In this document: one piece after another, positions 13,803 through 41,672 of the stretch
Layout of the letters: every line of letters starts with the position of its first letter
Numbering within the stretch: position 1 is the first letter of the stretch
Source of the DNA: an uncultured delta proteobacterium
GTDB taxonomy: Bacteria; Desulfobacterota; Syntrophia; Syntrophales; Smithellaceae
DNA: 64,000 nucleotides
Reading direction: 5' to 3'
Assembly: GCA_963710995.1 (NCBI GenBank)
Contig: CAVQCU010000212.1
Span: 32,084 to 96,083 of the forward strand
The notes under the pieces: generated by a model
Told to the model about the DNA's origin: nothing
What the model saw: only the letters and a program-made list of their open reading frames with translations
The model's database searches: none
Translations under genes and position numbers: made by a program

Positions 13803-16403
13803 ATCTCTTGGAATATGACGCCTTTCATTACTAGGCAATGTAACACAAACTTTCGTTCCTTTGTCCTTTTCACTGATAATTTCTATTTTACCTTGATGGA
13901 GGTCAACTATTTTTTTTACCAGGGAAAGGCCTAAACCAGTACCATAATTTTTCCGCGTAAAGAAAGGATTAAATATATGCGGCATGTCTGCCTCATCGAT
14001 GCCGCTGCCATTGTCTTTAATCTCCACGACCGCTGCCTGATGAGTTTCATCAAAATAACGCAACGAAACTAGAACTTTTCCATGTTCCTCTACTGCTTCT
14101 ACGGCATTACGGATAACATTTAAAAAAGCTCCAGCCATCATTGCCGCGTCAACTACTATGGGAGGAATATTGCCAAAATTTGTTTGCATCTCAATTTGTT
14201 TATCGGCAATTCCTTTTTCGGCCATAGCTATAGCCTGTTCCAACACTTTGGACAAATCCACAGGAATTTTTTTTGGTTCCACCGGTTTGGCAAAAGCTAA
14301 AACATTATTGACCAGCACCTCCAAATGGTCTACTTCTTTTTCAGCAATCTTAAATCTCTTCAAATCGTTTCCTTCAGGATTCATGCGTTTTGCCAATATT
14401 TGCAAACTCATTTTAATCGACGAAAGAGGATTGCGTACTTCATGAGCTATACCCGCCGAAAGCTGCCCCAAAGCCGACAACTTTTGACTTTCGTAAAGCT
14501 TTTTTTCCAGATTCTTGAATTCCGTAATATCGCGTTGAACCAGTATGTAATGATTGGTTCCGGTAACAGGAGAGGTGGTAATCAGAAGATTATGTTTGCG
14601 GCCGTCCTTGCTCGTTGCTTCAATTTCATAAGGGTCATAAACACCTTTTTTCGCAGCTTCCCATTTGGACAAAACGAAATCTTCGTATCCGGGCGCAACA
14701 AAATCCAAAAAGTATTTCCCTTTGAACTCACGGTTATGAATTATCCCTCCCTTTCTTAAACCAAGGCTCATATAGTTGATGATGCCGTTTTCATCCATCT
14801 CATAAATTTTATCCGGCAAACTATTTATTATCGACTGTAAATAGCTGTAAAGGTCTTCAATCTGTCGCCGCAGTTCAATATTCTCAACCAATTCATTATG
14901 CAATGTCTCGGCGTACTCGCTTAAACTTTTAGTCATTTCTCTTTCGCGCGAAACATCCTGCAGTGTTTCGATTGCCGCTATAATTTCCCTTTTTTCATCA
15001 TAAATAGGCGCCGCCAAAAAATACAAAATCCGGTTGCGGCCACCAAGATTTTCAAAATAATCTGTTGCTTCATAGGCGCCTAATACTTTGTCCGTTTTTT
15101 TTACTTTCTTTGTACCATAATATTTATTCAAATCTTCTATCTCGCTGTCGATAATTAAATCCGCAATAAGCGGCCTTTTGACTGAATAAAAAGGAACGTA
15201 ATGTTTATCAGTGCCAACCATATCTTCAGTCGAATAACCGGTAAGCTCCATGCAAGCGTGGTTCCATAAGATAACTTTGTGTTCCTTGTTGATAACAAAA
15301 GTGGGAATTGGCGAACCTTCAATAATGCCGTCTATAGTTTTCTTTTCCAGGAGCAGTTTTTCCTGCCAGTCCTCCCGCTCTTTTAATCTTTTCTTCTCTT
15401 CCTTGATGCGCAGTCTTTTACCCTCTTTATAGGCAAAAGACATACTGGCAATTATAACTACCCCTATGAGCAATAATGAAATAAAAAGCGTATAAACAAA
15501 AGTTTTACGAACGGGTGAAATTACCAGATTGTACGGAGCAACAACGAAAAGAACCCATTTTTTATCTCCCGCCTGCAACGGATAAAAAGCAACTACACTG
15601 CGCTGCTGTTTTTTATCACTCAGGCGCACCACTGCTTCAAAGTAATTACCATTAGCTGATGAAAAATCAATTTGCGCTCCTTTACCGTTGATCAATAGAT
15701 CTTTTATGTTTTTTCCGACAAATGCTGAATCGGGATGAATAATTATCTGTTGTTTTTCATCCATTAACCAGAGGTCTCCCAATTCATTATTTCTGGTTTG
15801 TTTTTCATATTTATCCACAACTGCCGATAGAGAAAAGGAGACTATCCATGCTCCGGCGAATTTGCCGTCCTGACGCCTCAGAGGGCAGCCGACCACCAGA
15901 TACCGATCCATTTTTTGTTTTAAACTGACTGCACGTGATCGTTCCGGTAAAGCCAAACCTAAATATTGTTTTTGTTCTTTCTGGAGAATCTTAAAGTGAT
16001 CAGACAAATTTATTGCCGGATAGATATTCTGCGGGTAAACGCTCCTTATCTTGCCTGCGGCATCAAACAGGACAATTGTATTAAAAGTGCTTTCCCAGCC
16101 GGAAGACAATATTTTGTAATAACTATCAATTTCTTCGGAAGATATTTTTAGCTGAGGATCAAAATGAGAAAATAAAGCAATATTTTTCCCGACCTGTGAA
16201 AAAATATCGGCCATTCTTGTTGCAGTATTTTGTACATTGGCAAGCTGCTGCCGACTGAACAGATCAACCATATCCTTTTCTCTGGCGCTGTTCACTGTCA
16301 AAGATAAAAGTAGAATCAGGATGATCACCGCTACACTGGCTAACCAGATGCGTACTTTTATAGCCTTATAGAAGAGTTTATTAATTTTACTGAATAAGGT
16401 CAC
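13800..16403 (-). CDS. Sensor histidine kinase with periplasmic Cache-like and cytoplasmic PAS domains
   Basis: H-box HEVRNPL, N-box NVIRNAVEA, DNGSGI, GTGLGLS. Two TM segments flank a ~290-aa extracytoplasmic region. GTG start. Confidence 0.9.
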   Translation of the reverse strand: MTLFSKINKLFYKAIKVRIWLASVAVIILILLLSLTVNSAREKDMVDLFSRQQLANVQNTATRMADIFSQVGKNIALFSHFDPQLKISSEEIDSYYKILSSGWESTFNTIVLFDAAGKIRSVYPQNIYPAINLSDHFKILQKEQKQYLGLALPERSRAVSLKQKMDRYLVVGCPLRRQDGKFAGAWIVSFSLSAVVDKYEKQTRNNELGDLWLMDEKQQIIIHPDSAFVGKNIKDLLINGKGAQIDFSSANGNYFEAVVRLSDKKQQRSVVAFYPLQAGDKKWVLFVVAPYNLVISPVRKTFVYTLFISLLLIGVVIIASMSFAYKEGKRLRIKEEKKRLKEREDWQEKLLLEKKTIDGIIEGSPIPTFVINKEHKVILWNHACMELTGYSTEDMVGTDKHYVPFYSVKRPLIADLIIDSEIEDLNKYYGTKKVKKTDKVLGAYEATDYFENLGGRNRILYFLAAPIYDEKREIIAAIETLQDVSREREMTKSLSEYAETLHNELVENIELRRQIEDLYSYLQSIINSLPDKIYEMDENGIINYMSLGLRKGGIIHNREFKGKYFLDFVAPGYEDFVLSKWEAAKKGVYDPYEIEATSKDGRKHNLLITTSPVTGTNHYILVQRDITEFKNLEKKLYESQKLSALGQLSAGIAHEVRNPLSSIKMSLQILAKRMNPEGNDLKRFKIAEKEVDHLEVLVNNVLAFAKPVEPKKIPVDLSKVLEQAIAMAEKGIADKQIEMQTNFGNIPPIVVDAAMMAGAFLNVIRNAVEAVEEHGKVLVSLRYFDETHQAAVVEIKDNGSGIDEADMPHIFNPFFTRKNYGTGLGLSLVKKIVDLHQGKIEIISEKDKGTKVCVTLPSNERRHIPRD

Positions 16404-17909: not shown

Positions 17910-19223
17910 ATGTCAAAAACTAAAAAAGGTAAGCAGTTTTTTAATATAGGAGGCGTGTTCTTCCTGCTTATCGTAATCCCCTTATCATTAATGGCTTTCT
18001 TAATTGCCAACGGCATGTTTAAGCTGGGGGTTACCATAAAGCAGAGTACAATATCTGCTATAGACCAAAAATCTCAGGAAGATATAAGAGCTAGAGCCGT
18101 CAATACAGCAAACGAAGTTGCCAGTTTCCTCATGGAAAGCAATAAAGATTTACAAGTCGCAACAATCATTCCCTCAACAGAAGCTGTATACAAACAGTTT
18201 ATTTCTGAAAATAAAAAACCGGTCTGGGTCAAACATGACGGTAAAATACAGCAGGTATTGATCCCGCTGTACAAAGAAATGGCTCTGATTGATAAAAACG
18301 GCAACGAACAAATTAAAGTCGTTGACGGTCAGGCGATGCCGGCGAAAAAACTGGTTAATGTCAGCAATCCGGCCAATACAACATATAAAACTGAAGATTA
18401 TTTTGCTAAGACAAAAAATCTGAATAAAGGCGAAGTTTATGTTTCCCCGGTAACAGGGTTCTATGTCGATAAGGCAGCGTTTGAAAAGGGACAAAGATTT
18501 TCCGGAATCGTCCGTTTTGCGACACCGGTATTCAATAAAGATGGCTTCGCGGGTATAATTACACTGGCCTTGGATTATCGTCATCTGGCCGAGTTTACCC
18601 ATCACCTTGTTCCTACGCAGGCGGAAAAGGTATTTGAAACACAGAGTTCTGGCGGTAATTACGCTTATATGGTCGACCATCGCGGTTTTGTCATTTCCCA
18701 TCCTAGTGATTTTCATATTGTTGGACTCAACCCTAACGGAACAATTGTTCCAACTGTTACGGCTCAGAACGCAACAGAACTGGCAAAGAAAGGCGCAGAA
18801 GCGTTGAACCTCTTCCAGTTGGGTTTTATGGATCCCAATTTATTTACTATCGCGAAAGAAGCTGTACAAGGAAAATCAGGAGTTTTAATGTACAAATTTG
18901 GTGGATACAACAAGTTCGTCGCCTATGCGCCGATCAAGTTTTATGCGTCAAACCTTCCTGCACCTACCGGTTTTGGCTGGATCGGCCTGGGACTGGAAAT
19001 TGAGAAATATAACGAAGCGGCACTAAAGGTATCGCAAAATATTGAAAAGGAATCAAAAGCATGGACTGCGACAATCATCTTTATTCTTATCGCTTCCATG
19101 ATTATTCTGTTCTTCATTATGCTGCTTTTGGTTCGTGGAGTCAGCCGTTCATTAGAGGCGGAAATCCCAAAAGGTTCAGAAGGTCAATCATCATTTGATG
19201 ATGATGATGATGATGATAAATAA
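17910..19223 (+). CDS. Cache-like extracytoplasmic sensor domain protein without output domain
   Basis: TM1 - ~330 aa extracytoplasmic region with a Cache-like pattern - TM2 - ~35-aa tail ending DDDDDDDK. No kinase, MCP or GGDEF module. Confidence 0.7.
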   Translation: MSKTKKGKQFFNIGGVFFLLIVIPLSLMAFLIANGMFKLGVTIKQSTISAIDQKSQEDIRARAVNTANEVASFLMESNKDLQVATIIPSTEAVYKQFISENKKPVWVKHDGKIQQVLIPLYKEMALIDKNGNEQIKVVDGQAMPAKKLVNVSNPANTTYKTEDYFAKTKNLNKGEVYVSPVTGFYVDKAAFEKGQRFSGIVRFATPVFNKDGFAGIITLALDYRHLAEFTHHLVPTQAEKVFETQSSGGNYAYMVDHRGFVISHPSDFHIVGLNPNGTIVPTVTAQNATELAKKGAEALNLFQLGFMDPNLFTIAKEAVQGKSGVLMYKFGGYNKFVAYAPIKFYASNLPAPTGFGWIGLGLEIEKYNEAALKVSQNIEKESKAWTATIIFILIASMIILFFIMLLLVRGVSRSLEAEIPKGSEGQSSFDDDDDDDK

Positions 19224-19253: not shown

Positions 19254-19280
19254 GCCGAATTTCGATTCGGCTTTTTTTTT
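19254..19280 (+). terminator. Rho-independent terminator GCCGAAT-TTCG-ATTCGGC + T9
   Basis: 7-bp GC-containing stem followed by nine T, 30 nt after the Cache gene stop. Confidence 0.8.
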
Positions 19281-19525
19281 AATGAGACTCGCTGAAAACG
19301 AACGAAGTGAAGTTTGAAGCGTTAATCGAATTATTTATTCCGCAAGTGAAGCACAGCGGAATTGGCAAGTTGAACAATCCCGCACAGCGGCGGTTATGAG
19401 ACTCCAACATGACAAGCGAAGCGTAGTCAGATTGGCTAGTCGAATTATCCCGCAAAGCGGAGGGTATGATACCCGGAAGCTTGCTGCGAAACGTTCCCAA
19501 AGCTTGATTTGGGATTCATACCCAC
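19281..19525 (+). repeat. Hairpin-module array B
   Basis: Starts (T)AATGAGACTCGCTGAAAACGAA. Contains ATTCCGC-N12-GCGGAAT, GGCAAGTTGAAC and AATCCCGC-ACA-GCGGCGG, and ends TTCATACCCAC. Confidence 0.85.
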
Positions 19526-20598: not shown

Positions 20599-20800
20599 AT
20601 CACGGGTATGAACCCCAAAGCAAGCTTTGGAAACAGATTCCGCAGTAAGCTGCGGGGTTTTAAACCCTCCACTGCGCGGGATAATTCGACCAGCAAGCTT
20701 CAGTGCACTTTGTTTCTGAAGCTTGGGTTTCATTACAACTTACCAATTCCGCTACGCCTACAGTGACCTTTAGGTTATTCGCTTTCGGAATTGGAGTTTC
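20599..20800 (-). repeat. Hairpin-module array C (reverse orientation)
   Basis: The reverse complement starts GAAACTCCAATTCCG and ends TTCATACCCGTGAT. It shares its module order with arrays E and B. Confidence 0.85.
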
Positions 20801-20816
20801 AACAATAACAGGCACT

Positions 20817-21189
20817 GGAGAAGATCATAAGCCGAGTCTTGTCCCGCGTTTCGGTTACCCTACATGTGGTGATGATCATTCATCTGGGACAGCAGTTACC
20901 TGCAGCCTCTAGCGACACTACCCGAGAACATCAGGCGGGCCACCTTTAAACGTTCTCCTATTTGGTCTTGCTCCGGATGGGGTTTACCATGCCTTTCCTG
21001 TCGCCAGGAAAGCGGTGAGCTCTTACCTCGCCTTTTCACCCTTACTCAAGGCTTTCGCCCTGGGCGGTATGTTTTCTGTGGCACTTTCCTTAGGGTCGCC
21101 CCCAGTCGCCGTTAGCGACCATCCTGCCCTGTGGAGCTCGGACTTTCCTCCGGCAGATAAATTCTGCCGACGATCATCTGATCTTCTCC
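20817..21189 (-). ncRNA. rnpB: RNase P RNA, bacterial type A
   Basis: The reverse strand has GGAGGAAAGTCCGAGCTCCACAGGGCAGG, AGGGTGAAAAGGCGAGGTAAGAGCTCACC, ACAAGACTCGGCTTATGATC and a P1 pairing GGAGAAGATCA/TGATCTTCTCC. Confidence 0.93.
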
Positions 21190-23873: not shown

Positions 23874-23885
23874 ATGAGGTTAAAA

Positions 23886-24851
23886 ATGAGTTCAAGAATT
23901 TTAGAGATAGAAGAAAAATCGATTGACGAAGCCATTGAAAAGGCTTGCCTCGAATTTGGCGTACCACGGGAGAAATTAAATATCGAAATTATCTCTGGAG
24001 AATCTGGAGGTTTTTTGGGATTATTTTCCAAAAAAGCAAAAATAAAAGCATCTCTGGTTTCTCTGGACATGGATTTTAGCTTCACGGATCATCCAAAAGC
24101 TAAAAGCGAATCAAAAACAGAACATCGAGAAAAGCCGGCAAAAAATGTTATACCTGAAAAAAAAATTTTAACGGAAAAACCGGGAAAGAAGACAGAGCCT
24201 GTAGTTTCCAGCTCCAACACTATACCAGTGTCAAAGGCAAGTGAATCAAAAATAAAAATAGAACCACGGGTAAAGCCGGCAAAAAATGTTATACCTGAAA
24301 AAAAAATTATAACAGAAAAACATGGAAAGCAGACAGAGCCCGTAGTTTCCATCTCCAGCGCTGTGCTGGCGTCAAACGCAAAGGATCTGCTGGAAGGCAT
24401 TTTGCAGAGGATATCATTGGAATGTAAGGTGACTGTTAATGAAACGCCGGAAAAAATAATTCTCGACATTGAAGGCGATAACAGCGGTTTGCTTATCGGC
24501 AAACGCGGACAGAATATAGATGCTCTTCAGTATATATTGAACAAAGCAATCAATAAATTTGATAATGGACACAAAATGATCCTGATCGATTCGGGAGAGT
24601 ACAGAAAAAGAAGAGAAGAATTCCTGCTTGGTTTAGCGGAAAAAATAAGGGAAAGAGTAAAAAAGACCATGAAACCAGTATCGCTTGCCCACATGAATGC
24701 CCATGACCGGCGTATTATCCATATGGTGCTGCAAGAAGATGAATCGCTAATCACGCAAAGCCGCGGCGAAGGTAAATACAGAAAGATCGTCATTCTTCCC
24801 GCGAAAGCAGGCAATACCAAGCATGTCAGAGAAAAAAAATCACGGGTATAA
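23886..24851 (+). CDS. jag: Jag-like KH/R3H RNA-binding protein
   Basis: N-terminal Jag_N-like segment, C-terminal KH (GKRGQNIDALQYI) and R3H (HDRRIIH) motifs. Contains an internal 141-nt tandem duplication. Start chosen at the ATG with a GAGG SD. Confidence 0.85.
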   Translation: MSSRILEIEEKSIDEAIEKACLEFGVPREKLNIEIISGESGGFLGLFSKKAKIKASLVSLDMDFSFTDHPKAKSESKTEHREKPAKNVIPEKKILTEKPGKKTEPVVSSSNTIPVSKASESKIKIEPRVKPAKNVIPEKKIITEKHGKQTEPVVSISSAVLASNAKDLLEGILQRISLECKVTVNETPEKIILDIEGDNSGLLIGKRGQNIDALQYILNKAINKFDNGHKMILIDSGEYRKRREEFLLGLAEKIRERVKKTMKPVSLAHMNAHDRRIIHMVLQEDESLITQSRGEGKYRKIVILPAKAGNTKHVREKKSRV

Positions 24852-25063
24852 ACCCAAAGCAAGTGGTTGCGTATCATGTATAGTCCCACTTAGCTTCGCA
24901 TGTGGGATAATTTCCAATAGCGTTTAGCTATTGGATAATTCGTCTAAAAAACTTCAACGCGCTTTGCTTTTGAAGTTTAAGACTCATTACGACTAACGCT
25001 TCAAACTTCATCCCGACGAGTCTGGATTCGTTTTCAGCGAGTCTCATTAAATTGGAGTTTCAC
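24841..25063 (-). repeat. Hairpin-module array D (reverse orientation)
   Basis: The reverse complement starts GTGAAACTCCAATT and ends TTTATACCCGTG. It overlaps the last 3 codons and the stop of jag. Confidence 0.85.
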
Positions 25064-25118
25064 GAACAAGAATAGTTTTTAGTCAATTTAACTATATATA
25101 AAGGGGAAGTGTCCAACT

Positions 25119-29212: not shown

Positions 29213-30498
29213 ATGTCCAAGAATGATTATAACAAGCAGGCGTTACGTCGTCAAAGGATTAAGAAAACAACTTTCATCGTTGGGGTTGACATCGGCAATG
29301 CTTTCAATGCGTTGGGATTTATGGACAAGGAAGGCAACGTTTTAGGAAGCTGTACGAAGCTCTATAACAGTCGCGAAGGATTTGAGCAATTTGTAGATAT
29401 GATTGAAGGGCTAAAAGCGAAGCATCATTTGAGGGATGTTCTCATCGGGATGGAACCAACGGGACATTACTGGAGGAAGCTGGCCTATTTTGCAAAAGAG
29501 CATGGCTATGAAGTTCGTTTTGTGAGGACTACAGCACTGAAGCATCACCGGGAGTTGGATGAGAGTTCATCAGCTAAGAGTGACCAAAGAGATGCGTTAA
29601 CCATAGCGAATATAACCCGAGAAGGTAAATATATTGACACCGTCATCAAGGATGGAGTGCTGCGGCAGTTGCGGACGCTATCGAAAGCCAGGGAGAGACT
29701 TTTCCGATACAGCGTGAGTGCAAAAAACTCATTACATGCCGCCCTGGACGATTATTTTCCCGAATTGCATGAGATATTCTGGTCAAGGGGATCACGGAGT
29801 CTGTGGATTATTCTTGAGCAATGTCCTTTCCCCAGGACGTTGTGTTGATGAAGGTATCGACTCTCCGAGACTTGATTGTACAAAGTTCAAGAAAGAAAGC
29901 GGGCTTTGCCGTTAAGGCAGAAAAACTTATTGAATCTGCTCAAAAAAGTATTGGAATAAAACAGATTGGCAACGCTGACCGATACCGGGTTCAAATGTGC
30001 CTGGAAGAAGTGAAACGGACAGTCCTGTTGCTCAATAATCTGGATAAACAGTTGAAGCTCCTACTTAAGGAGACAACCGCAGCATCCTATCTGATGAGCA
30101 TACCGGGCGTAGGCCCTCTTTCTGCCGCTGTGTTTTTGGGAGAACTGGGAGATCCTACCCATTTTCATAATGCCCGTCAGATCGTGAAGTACGCCGGATA
30201 TGATCCCCAGGAGAGTGATTCAGGTTCGCGTATTGGTCGGAAGTTCATATCCAAGAAGGGAAGATGGCTCTTACGAAAATATCTTTTCTTTATGAGTATG
30301 AGAGTGGTGTTTCTGAGTAACTATTTTCAGGAATACTACCTTCGGAAATTGGAAACAAAGAACAGGGTTGGTCAACAGCCCAGGCGCAAAGAGATGCTCT
30401 GTGCAGTGGCTATTAAGCTGATCAAAGTAATCTTTGCCTTACTGCGGGATAAGCGGGAATTTGAAGATTTAGCGCCTGCTGCTGCGGCATGTGCATAA
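29213..30498 (+). pseudogene. IS110-family transposase, split by a -1 frame change at a C4 run (29830-29833)
   Basis: ORFs 29213-29848 and 29821-30498 join as ..ILEQCPFP|QDVVLMKV.. if one C is added. Confidence 0.75.
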
Positions 30499-40531: not shown

Positions 40532-40556
40532 ATATTCACTCCGCTAATTTATTGTT

Positions 40557-40663
40557 GAAACTCCAATTCCGAAAGCGCAGCGCAACGGAATTGGTAAGTT
40601 GAACAATCCCGCAAAGCGGAGGGTATAATACCCCGCAGCTTGCTTTGGGGTATTATACCCGTG
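40557..40663 (+). repeat. Hairpin-module array E (minimal 107-nt version)
   Basis: GAAACTCCAATTCCG-N14-CGGAATTGGTAAGTTGAACAATCCCGC-AAA-GCGGAGGGTATAATACCCC-N12-GGGGTATTATACCCGTG. It overlaps the last 3 codons and the stop of aroF. Confidence 0.88.
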
Positions 40664-41672
40664 AATGTCTCATCGCCGCGGCGATTGCCTTTAATTCGTC
40701 CATCAATTGATAAAACTTCTCCGGTTTCAGAGACTGCGCTCCATCGGAGACGGCTTTTTCCGGTTCCGGATGAACTTCCACGATAAGACCATCAGCGCCA
40801 ACAGCAACCGCGGCACGGGACAGCGGAATTACATATTTCCAATGACCGGCAGCATGACTGGGATCGACAATAACCGGCAGATGCGTCAAACCCTTCAACA
40901 CCGGAACAGCGCTTAAATCCAGAGTGTTTCTTGTGGCCGTTTCAAACGTCCTGATGCCGCGTTCGCATAGAATAACATTAGGGTTACCTGAAGAAAGAAT
41001 ATATTCCGCCGACATGAGTAACTCTTCGATGGTGGTCATCATCCCTCTTTTTAAAAGCACCGGCTTTTTCGAACGACCGACTTCTTTGAGCAGGGCAAAA
41101 TTCTGGGTATTGCGCGCGCCGATTTGCAGCATGTCGGCATAAGATTCCACAAGATCAACATCAGCGGGATTGACCACTTCAGTGACCGTCGGCAGACCCG
41201 TTCTCACACTAACCTGATTTAATACTTTCAAGCCTTCTTCTTCCATACCCTGGAAGCTGTATGGCGAAGTGCGCGGTTTGTAGGCGCCGCCTCTAAGAAT
41301 CTGGGCACCGCCCTTTTTGGCGACATAGGCGGACTCTAGTAATTGCTCTTCGCTTTCAATCGCACAGGGACCGGCTATTACCACGAATTCCGGGCCGCCG
41401 ATTTTAATCAGACCTACGGAAACCACGGTATTACCTTCGTGCGATTCACGACTTGCCAACTTGTATGGTTTTAAAATCGGCATGGTTTTTTCTACCCCCG
41501 GCAAGGATTCCGCGTATTTAAGGATCCCCTTGTCGCGATTGTCACCGACTGCCCCGATAATTGTCCGTTCAACACCGATTGAAGGATGCGCTTTGTATCC
41601 GACAGATTCAATCCAGTGAATCACATCTTCAATTTGCTTTTCTGTAGCTTGATTCTTCATTACAATGATCAT
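40653..41672 (-). CDS. aroF: 3-deoxy-7-phosphoheptulonate (DAHP) synthase, class I-beta with N-terminal regulatory domain
   Basis: KDO8PS-like core ([25 protein letters not shown]) after a ~70-aa ferredoxin-like N-terminal domain. Confidence 0.9.

Follow-up and report, generated by a model that had tools for sequence, protein, structure and literature searches.

A gene-less hairpin repeat that probably inserts at A-rich TAA sites and closes unrelated Smithellaceae genes with a Ser-Arg-Val tail

How do two unrelated genes, lying on opposite strands, come to share the same last 12 nucleotides? The question is raised by a 64,000-nucleotide stretch of DNA from an uncultured delta proteobacterium of the Smithellaceae (GenBank assembly GCA_963710995.1, contig CAVQCU010000212.1, positions 32,084 to 96,083; hereafter the window), in which the jag (khpB) gene and an aroF-type DAHP synthase gene both finish with codons for Ser-Arg-Val and a stop. 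The answer developed here, which is considered highly probable, is that a gene-less repeat inserts whole, in a fixed orientation and without duplication of the target, at sites of the form A-rich^TAA(A), where the caret marks the point of insertion, and that hits on stop codons leave the host gene with Ser-Arg-Val and the element's own stop.

The shared sequence, TCACGGGTATAA, occurs exactly at 24840-24851 on the plus strand and at 40653-40664 on the minus strand of the window, and at both sites it constitutes the final three sense codons and the stop, as a first-pass annotation of the DNA had reported. With up to one mismatch allowed the window holds four matches, against 0.17 expected from shuffled sequence. 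A TGA variant is present at 20600-20611 and, again as reported, no open reading frame (ORF) enters it, the nearest co-directional ORF ending 74 nt upstream. A near-match, TCGCGGGTATAA at 18547-18558, lies within an ORF (17910-19223) without an array behind it and is taken as a probable chance resemblance. The features of the two gene ends are as follows.

23874..24851, plus strand: jag/khpB ORF, 325 aa, with the Pfam domains Jag_N, KH_KhpA-B and R3H
24840-24851, plus strand: last three codons and stop of jag/khpB, element DNA
24840..25066, plus strand: hairpin array at jag, 227 nt, left terminus TCACGGGTATAA, right terminus ...ATTGGAGTTTCACGAA
25067..25075, plus strand: displaced native jag end CAA GAA TAG (Gln-Glu-stop), then the native spacer TTTTTAGTCAATTT
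40653..41672, minus strand: DAHP synthase ORF (aroF-type), 339 aa, with the Pfam domains DAHP_synth_1 and DAHP_snth_FXD (ferredoxin-like domain)
40653-40664, minus strand: last three codons and stop of the DAHP synthase gene, element DNA
40552..40664, minus strand: hairpin array at aroF, 113 nt, three hairpins, left terminus TCACGGGTATAA, right terminus ...TTGGAGTTTCAACAA
40549..40551, minus strand: displaced native aroF TAA stop, then the native spacer ATTAGCGGAGTGAATAT and the aroB ATG (compare CAT TAA aataacggagtaaatatATG at locus L003, and L006)

Orthologues that lack the element indicate what the native ends look like. All 17 same-genus AroF orthologues end in ...AM(R/K)H, with TAA or TAG as the next codon and a spacer of 15-150 nt from the stop to aroB, and 80 further orthologues from the Smithellaceae and Syntrophales have neither the SRV tail nor the element, giving 0 of 97 with the tail. 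The locus in the window reads CAT|TCACGGGTATAA...array...TTTCAACAA|TAA ATTAGCGGAGTGAATAT ATG(aroB). Since the native stop and spacer are intact beyond the array, the element occupies the exact boundary of the final sense codon and the stop, and AroF is predicted to be extended, its stop being exchanged for SRV-stop. Element-free relatives of jag end in ...GAA AAA AAA CAA GA(A/G) TAG ttttt... (EKKQE-stop) or in ...EKKRD-stop. In the window the array is followed, from 25067, by CAAGAATAGTTTTTAGTCAATTT, the native CAAGAATAGTTTTT / CAAGAATAG string being kept beyond the array, and the displaced end matches aaaaaaCAAGAATAGttt.. of the element-free loci L023, L029, L030 and L031. Here the element entered two codons 5' of the stop, such that Gln-Glu-stop became Ser-Arg-Val-stop. 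The earlier proposal that the array end donates the last residues and the stop codon is therefore upheld, as a replacement in Jag and as an extension in AroF. The same jag insertion is found in five relatives (G006, G003, G016 and G015 among them) with differing internal modules, and in decayed form in two others. One of these, G018 (L027), has a Jag tail of SRG-stop; in the other, G008 (L028), the donated stop has been lost and the ORF continues for 14 residues into the array.

The bare identity of the two 12-mers, taken alone, would speak for coincidence or common ancestry, with both genes natively ending in Ser-Arg-Val and the arrays merely beginning after the stop. Against this stand the 97 AroF orthologues without SRV, the QE-stop or RD-stop ends of the element-free Jag orthologues, the persistence of both native ends on the far side of the arrays, and the finding, described below, that about 98 copies of a repeat have the 12-mer as their terminus. 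Chance or ancestral identity of the gene ends was hence ruled out on the orthologues and on the repeat-terminus status, and its residual probability is minute.

The source genome (G000; 3.53 Mb in 248 contigs, 43.6% G+C) contains 64 exact termini, 50 of the TGA form TCACGGGTATGA and 14 of the TAA form TCACGGGTATAA. Nearly all of these continue into ACCCCAAAGCAAG... or ACCCCAAAGCAAGC... and then into more hairpin modules, and their left flanks are unrelated. A profile search of the genome brings the number of left termini to 98. Because the 12-mer is the terminus of a repeat of some 98 copies with unrelated upstream flanks, both gene ends derive from one repeat, in agreement with the first-pass reading of the 12-mer as an array terminus. 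The repeat is gene-less and 110-230 nt long, with TCACGGGTATRA as its left end, and is built of a left hairpin module, variable internal hairpin modules and a right module ending in ...TTGGAGTTTCAnnAA. Forty-eight left and right ends pair into arrays, which fall into length classes of 111-113, 135-138, 153-164, 181-188 and 206-215 nt. The aroF array has full-length twins elsewhere in the genome, at 84-89% identity, and this implies that the arrays move as units. Two more arrays lie in the window.

20600..20805, plus strand: third array, 206 nt, with a TGA-type left terminus, unfused to any gene
19278..19525, minus strand: fourth array, with the decayed left terminus TTGTGGGTATGA

A pattern scan for the terminus across the order gave 55 copies in the source genome, 75 in G054 of the same genus, and 28 and 27 in G088 and G129, which belong to other genera of the Smithellaceae; the 117 other genomes, same-genus G007 and G008 included, have 0-2 copies. 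The distribution is patchy and burst-like. No Rfam family was found on the arrays between window positions 16000 and 42000 at E <= 0.1, the sole match being RNase P RNA (RF00010, 326.8 bits) at 20813-21189 on the minus strand, 8 nt from the right end of the third array. A search of the literature for Smithella repeats returned no description of this element family. The only form with true terminal inverted repeats is a minimal single-hairpin left module at C81:54388-54434, whose inverted ends read TCACGGGTATGA...TCATACCCGTGA.

The flanks of the copies define the insertion site. To the left, A occupies position -2 in 85% and position -1 in 86% of copies; to the right, the first four positions are T (59%), A (79%), A (75%) and A (53%), giving an asymmetric consensus of approximately WAA^TAAA. 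These flanking bases are native DNA and not part of the element, since they are seen in the empty sites of relatives. The ^TAA junction is also present in 22 of 36 arrays that lie far from gene ends. Orientation with respect to the motif is fixed, AA^TAA being found in 24 of 48 pairs and its reverse complement in none of the 48. Duplication of AA or of three nucleotides was considered as a target-site duplication and rejected, none being seen in nine informative cases. That the insertion is polymorphic, where its junctions lie, which motif and orientation it uses and that it leaves no duplication are matters of direct observation.

The two window genes are part of a larger set. Within a genome-wide collection of 3322 genes, an uncurated proxy drawn from ORFs and codon usage, twelve genes read into the element, namely jag, aroF and ten more. 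Eleven co-directional genes stop exactly on the TGA or TAA of the element, with tails of (K)SRV, KPRV or HSRV and one decayed LRE; of the ten further genes, nine end on the element's stop and the remaining one, on contig C88, runs 29 residues in. In four other genes the native stop abuts the terminus and in eight it lies 1-10 nt upstream, and overall 23 of the 98 termini are located at, or no more than 10 nt from, a co-directional stop.

For the other fused genes, a chimera of nine C-terminal segments was searched against 20 same-genus genomes and 80 loci were fetched. In the genes for Pgk, a GT2 glycosyltransferase, Fsa/Tal, an HD/OB protein, a CCG-domain protein, PhoH and CheB the junction falls exactly between sense codon and stop, the element-free orthologues stopping at the residue just before the SRV, PRV or LRE tail. 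Behind the arrays at the Pgk and PhoH genes, the source genome still shows a recognisable native stop and the spacer that follows it. The insertion in rimI lies one codon upstream of the stop, and for a TPR gene (C236) all relatives retrieved carry the element. The sense|stop junction is thus exact in 8 of the 12 fused genes, and TGA and TAG stops have served as sites as well (Pgk, Fsa). The C88 gene, PpiC/SurA-like by eye, has the site AAAG^TAAATAAGTAA (AAAG^TAAAT), which lies within a codon, three codons short of the stop; the insertion is out of frame and gives the 29-residue tail. Of 20 termini sampled in each of two other genera rich in copies, 3 close an ORF of 150 codons or more in frame 0, compared with 1 of 20 and 0 of 20 for the other two frames.

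Traces of loss are seen at some of these sites. The C88 orthologue in G006 (L170, on G006:C1) reads AAGAAAG-TCACAA-TAAATAAGTAA, a 6-nt in-frame footprint consisting of the first four and last two nucleotides of the element; the source genome has this site filled and remoter relatives have it empty. Both ends of the element carry TCAC as a direct repeat, and the footprint suggests a deletion between these TCAC repeats. The CCG-domain gene of G006 (L082) has retained its SRV-stop tail and lost the rest of the array, and the rimI product of G032 (L121) ends ..VKPR-TAG, a possible scar.

From these observations the following route may be drawn. A TAA, or sometimes a TGA or TAG, that serves as a stop codon would be hit, so that the element separates the stop exactly from the codon before it. 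The ORF would then continue into the element in the frame TCA-CGG-GTA-TGA/TAA, the protein would gain Ser-Arg-Val and end on the element's stop in the 5' arm of the first hairpin, and the native stop would be displaced to the far end of the array. Joining may well take place at an AA^T core, which is common to the target and to both junctions of the element. Since insertion directly 5' of a TAA stop sets TCA-CGG-GTA-TGA in frame, the tail is uniform; the other two frames of the element are open for 20 and more than 45 codons. A three-residue tail is probably nearly neutral, and the SRV tails on about a dozen unrelated proteins are best regarded as predicted repeat-encoded ends.

Whether stop codons are themselves the target, as the first-pass annotation had suggested, can be judged from the number of available sites. 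TAA is the commonest stop in the genome (52% of genes) and 389 genes (12%) end in AA-TAA, which makes gene ends natural targets. Stop codons account for 5.9% of non-coding AATAA sites and for 9% of AAATAA sites, and the observed share of junctions at stops is 11 of 98 (11%; p = 0.03 against AATAA and p = 0.27 against AAATAA). As this share is near the motif expectation (6-9%), as the motif is kept far from genes (^TAA in 22 of the 36 remote arrays) and as the C88 insertion is out of frame, targeting seems to be driven by sequence and not by stop codons as such. The supposed targeting of the very 3' ends of genes was consequently not sustained, the motif being used wherever it is present. In the genome-wide statistics, 23 of 98 termini are at or within 10 nt of stops where a uniform intergenic null predicts 2%, and the stop share is roughly what the motif alone would give.

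A machinery that senses gene ends through something beyond the DNA motif, such as transcription termination, translation or DNA structure, would account for that excess near stops, for the 11 of 98 stop junctions where AAT[AG]A or AATAA sites predict 5.4-5.9% (p = 0.02-0.03), and for the use of the TGA and TAG stops of Pgk and Fsa. The excess of stop junctions shrinks, however, when AAATAA, actually the commonest site, is taken as reference, and the uniform null disregards both the motif and the present-day gaps that the arrays themselves have inflated. Moreover, 75 of the 98 termini are elsewhere and have the same motif, and the C88 insertion disregards codon phase. Homing of this kind is considered unlikely.

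No copy was found among 11,932 coding AATAA sites, and it is likely that selection has removed copies deep in genes. This absence can also be read as the mark of random insertion followed by survivorship, with no site preference and with only tolerated gene-end copies and the early-stop frame persisting; native 3' spacers are short, the one between aroF and aroB being about 17-25 nt, so that tolerated random insertions would often lie near stops, and 11 fused genes are in the stop-bearing frame compared with one in another. Selection certainly acts too, yet it could not create a flank pattern as strong and asymmetric as the one observed (A in 85-86% at -2 and -1, TAA at +1 to +3), which holds also away from genes, nor does survivorship fit an invariant orientation relative to the motif or junctions that are exactly sense|stop in 8 of 12 cases where a spread over the last codons would be expected. 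It is therefore given a slightly lower probability even than homing, and sequence-directed insertion is retained.

The donated stop lies within a strong structure. A perfect stem of 14 bp (-32.7 kcal/mol, z = -4.55) carries the UAA of the aroF array in its 5' arm; the UAA of the decayed jag copy is part of a 4-nt loop. The arrays may influence termination or mRNA stability. REP hairpins near stop codons of Escherichia coli reportedly affect translation and mRNA stability, and termination within such a hairpin is said to impede termination and to trigger ribosome rescue. As an addition to sequence-directed insertion, and not exclusive of it, selection might keep the stop and the hairpin together, either because this allows harmless colonisation of stop codons or because the structure acts as an mRNA stabiliser or translational brake. 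Such an adaptive terminus would agree with the reported REP effects, with the position of the stop within a strong stem and at codon 4 of the very frame that a ^TAA stop hit creates, the other frames being open, and with the commoner use of the TAA form at gene ends (4 of 11 compared with 9 of 83 elsewhere, p = 0.043). By chance, nevertheless, a given frame has about a 17% probability of a stop among its first four codons, decayed copies lose the stop without obvious consequence, as in the Jag of G008 with its 14 further residues, and conservation of the stop triplet is not specific evidence, since pairing within the stem also constrains the triplet. The adaptive terminus is consequently a doubtful addition. 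The second alternative of the first-pass annotation was that selection favours the stop-containing end as an insulator of translation from the array; the more frequent TAA form at gene ends is a hint, and the only one, that this may be so.

Several points weigh against insertion by the proposed route. The motif is loose, perfect AA^TAA being present in only half of the paired arrays, and each of the two window sites matches only half of it (CAT^TAA at aroF, AAA^CAA at jag). The gene set is a proxy and not a curated annotation, yet element-free orthologues served as a check on 11 of the 12 fused genes. The nominal enrichment over the plain AATAA expectation (p = 0.03) leaves room for an extra preference for, or tolerance of, gene ends. 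The remaining points concern the machinery. Across the genomes, neither PF01797 (Y1 transposase) nor PF01548 (IS110) tracks the copy number of the terminus. G129, with 27 termini, has neither family and G088, with 28, lacks PF01548; G073 and G103 have PF01797 matches and no termini; and in the source genome PF01797 is represented by an IS200 element with unrelated ends and by one unflanked 230-aa gene. The resident IS200, present in nine copies, was examined as a parent and rejected, because its ends (TTATATAGCCAC... and ...GGGGGAGGTTCAC) and its T-rich target are unlike those of the arrays. No candidate for an autonomous copy was found between terminus pairs 0.7-5 kb apart, which enclose only ordinary genes. 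Finally, orientation relative to local GC skew is divided 42:42, without replication-strand bias, in a moderate-strength test on a fragmented assembly in which the skew is nonetheless informative (rho 0.81 with gene-strand bias), and this division makes for a poor fit to the classical IS200/IS605 mechanism.

A more far-reaching idea is that a type of enzyme not yet linked to mobile DNA moves the arrays. It would be neither a PF01797 Y1/RAYT nor IS110, would not depend on the lagging strand, and would join hairpin-ended DNA at AA^T; the left end would have evolved as a 'replacement stop cassette', with three codons and a stop in a hairpin, for which stop codons are safe harbours because nowhere else in a gene is AATAA in frame. 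This is put forward as a speculation that is more probably wrong than right by a wide margin.

The IS200-type elements deserve a description of their own. Nine near-identical copies of about 620 nt, each with a 144-aa Y1 transposase, are found on contigs outside the window.

IS200 copies: C195:756, C204:8731, C235:7036, C22:15955, C32:6093, C138:1897, C133:17461, C81:32487, C60:1

In seven of them the reading frame is interrupted near codon 11 by a TAG (..HATYKT*YHLVW..), a position at which the C81 copy reads GAG; either a prematurely stopped version has multiplied or the TAG is read through. The jag array at about 24866-24883 (TTGCGTATCATGTATAG) resembles the 3' region of the IS200 tnpA (TTGCGTATCGTGTATAG) over a 17-mer with one mismatch, with TCACGGG before both, a likeness that is possibly due to chance. 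The window itself has an IS110-family (PF01548) transposase match at 29279-29761 (C212:61362-61844), in a region with two consecutive ORFs (29213-29848 and 29821-30498), and the gene may be frameshifted.

The arrays share traits with several known systems. The BOX elements of Streptococcus pneumoniae have the organisation boxA-boxB(n)-boxC, and the arrays resemble them in their fixed terminal modules, variable internal number and discrete length classes, without any sequence relation; no defined insertion motif at stop codons is known for BOX elements. With IS200/IS605 elements and their gene-less derivatives, the PATEs, the arrays have in common the absence of duplication, the fixed orientation, asymmetric hairpin ends and a point of insertion just 3' of a short motif (..AA^) like the one at the 3' end of the element itself (..AA^). 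They differ from IS200/IS605 in that no cognate Y1 parent with the same ends was found in the genome, in the strong preference for TAA 3' of the cut, which that mechanism does not predict, and in the lack of a lagging-strand orientation bias. As with IS110/IS1111, insertion is orientation- and site-specific, with no inverted-repeat termini and no or minimal duplication, but two genomes with 27-28 termini lack that transposase and the arrays are gene-less. Unlike a miniature inverted-repeat transposable element of the DDE type, the arrays have differing ends (TCACGGGTATGA... and ...TTGGAGTTTCAACAA), with the C81:54388 form as the exception, and make no duplication.

The closest precedents are the REPs and the QMITEs. 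GTAG- and CGTC-tagged REPs and BIMEs are high-copy palindromes, often clustered, that lie near or overlap the 3' ends of genes (PMC3733652) and are associated with RAYTs (PMC2817692), and donation of stop codons by REP termini is already known (Di Nocera et al. 2013, PMC3733652). The arrays are likewise high-copy, short, imperfect palindromes in extragenic clusters (about 98 termini and 48 paired hairpin arrays). They differ in that their terminus, TCAC-GGGTATGA..., has neither a GTAG nor a CGTC tag, in that they are ordered series of dissimilar hairpins with distinct left and right ends, and in that no gene of the RAYT type lies flanked by them or varies with their copy number. Furthermore, the element contributes three codons ahead of its stop and displaces the native one, in contrast to a stop supplied by a tag. 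In Coxiella burnetii, QMITE1 and QMITE2 extend over the last 1-50 bp of functional genes (PMC5896051) and can supply C-terminal residues and a stop, as for EnhC of the Dugway strain; they are described with terminal inverted repeats and direct repeats (PMC5896051). QMITE overlaps vary in length, whereas the tail is uniform and the sense|stop junction defined in the present case. The phenomenon is thus known in kind from REPs and QMITEs, and what is new is that the sense|stop junction is defined, that about a dozen housekeeping proteins have a uniform tail of three residues, and that the site is asymmetric and free of duplication.

For annotation, a recurring ...K-S-R-V C-terminus in Smithella and related syntrophs would be taken as repeat DNA rather than as a sorting or degradation signal, with the ancestral stop of the fused genes to be sought 110-230 nt downstream. 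The set also constitutes a natural experiment, in that pgk, aroF, khpB, phoH, cheB, rimI, fsa and others end inside the 5' arm of a strong hairpin. A precisely defined element without a recognisable transposase offers a tractable lead to a DNA-joining activity, and the presence, absence, decay and footprint states at orthologous sites could serve as phylogenetic markers within the Smithellaceae.

Two minor features of the window complete the description. The PAL-2 repeat at the mnmE stop and the hairpins of the LysE tail belong to repeat families distinct from the SRV element; on a brief look, the PAL-1, PAL-2, R4 and LysE hairpins all differ in sequence from the SRV arrays. Within jag, the linker contains a 128-nt tandem duplication (24113-24240 and 24254-24381, 84% identity, 141-nt spacing) that encodes a repeated KPAKNVIPEKKI.TEK.GK.TEPVVS, and the length of this linker varies between relatives.

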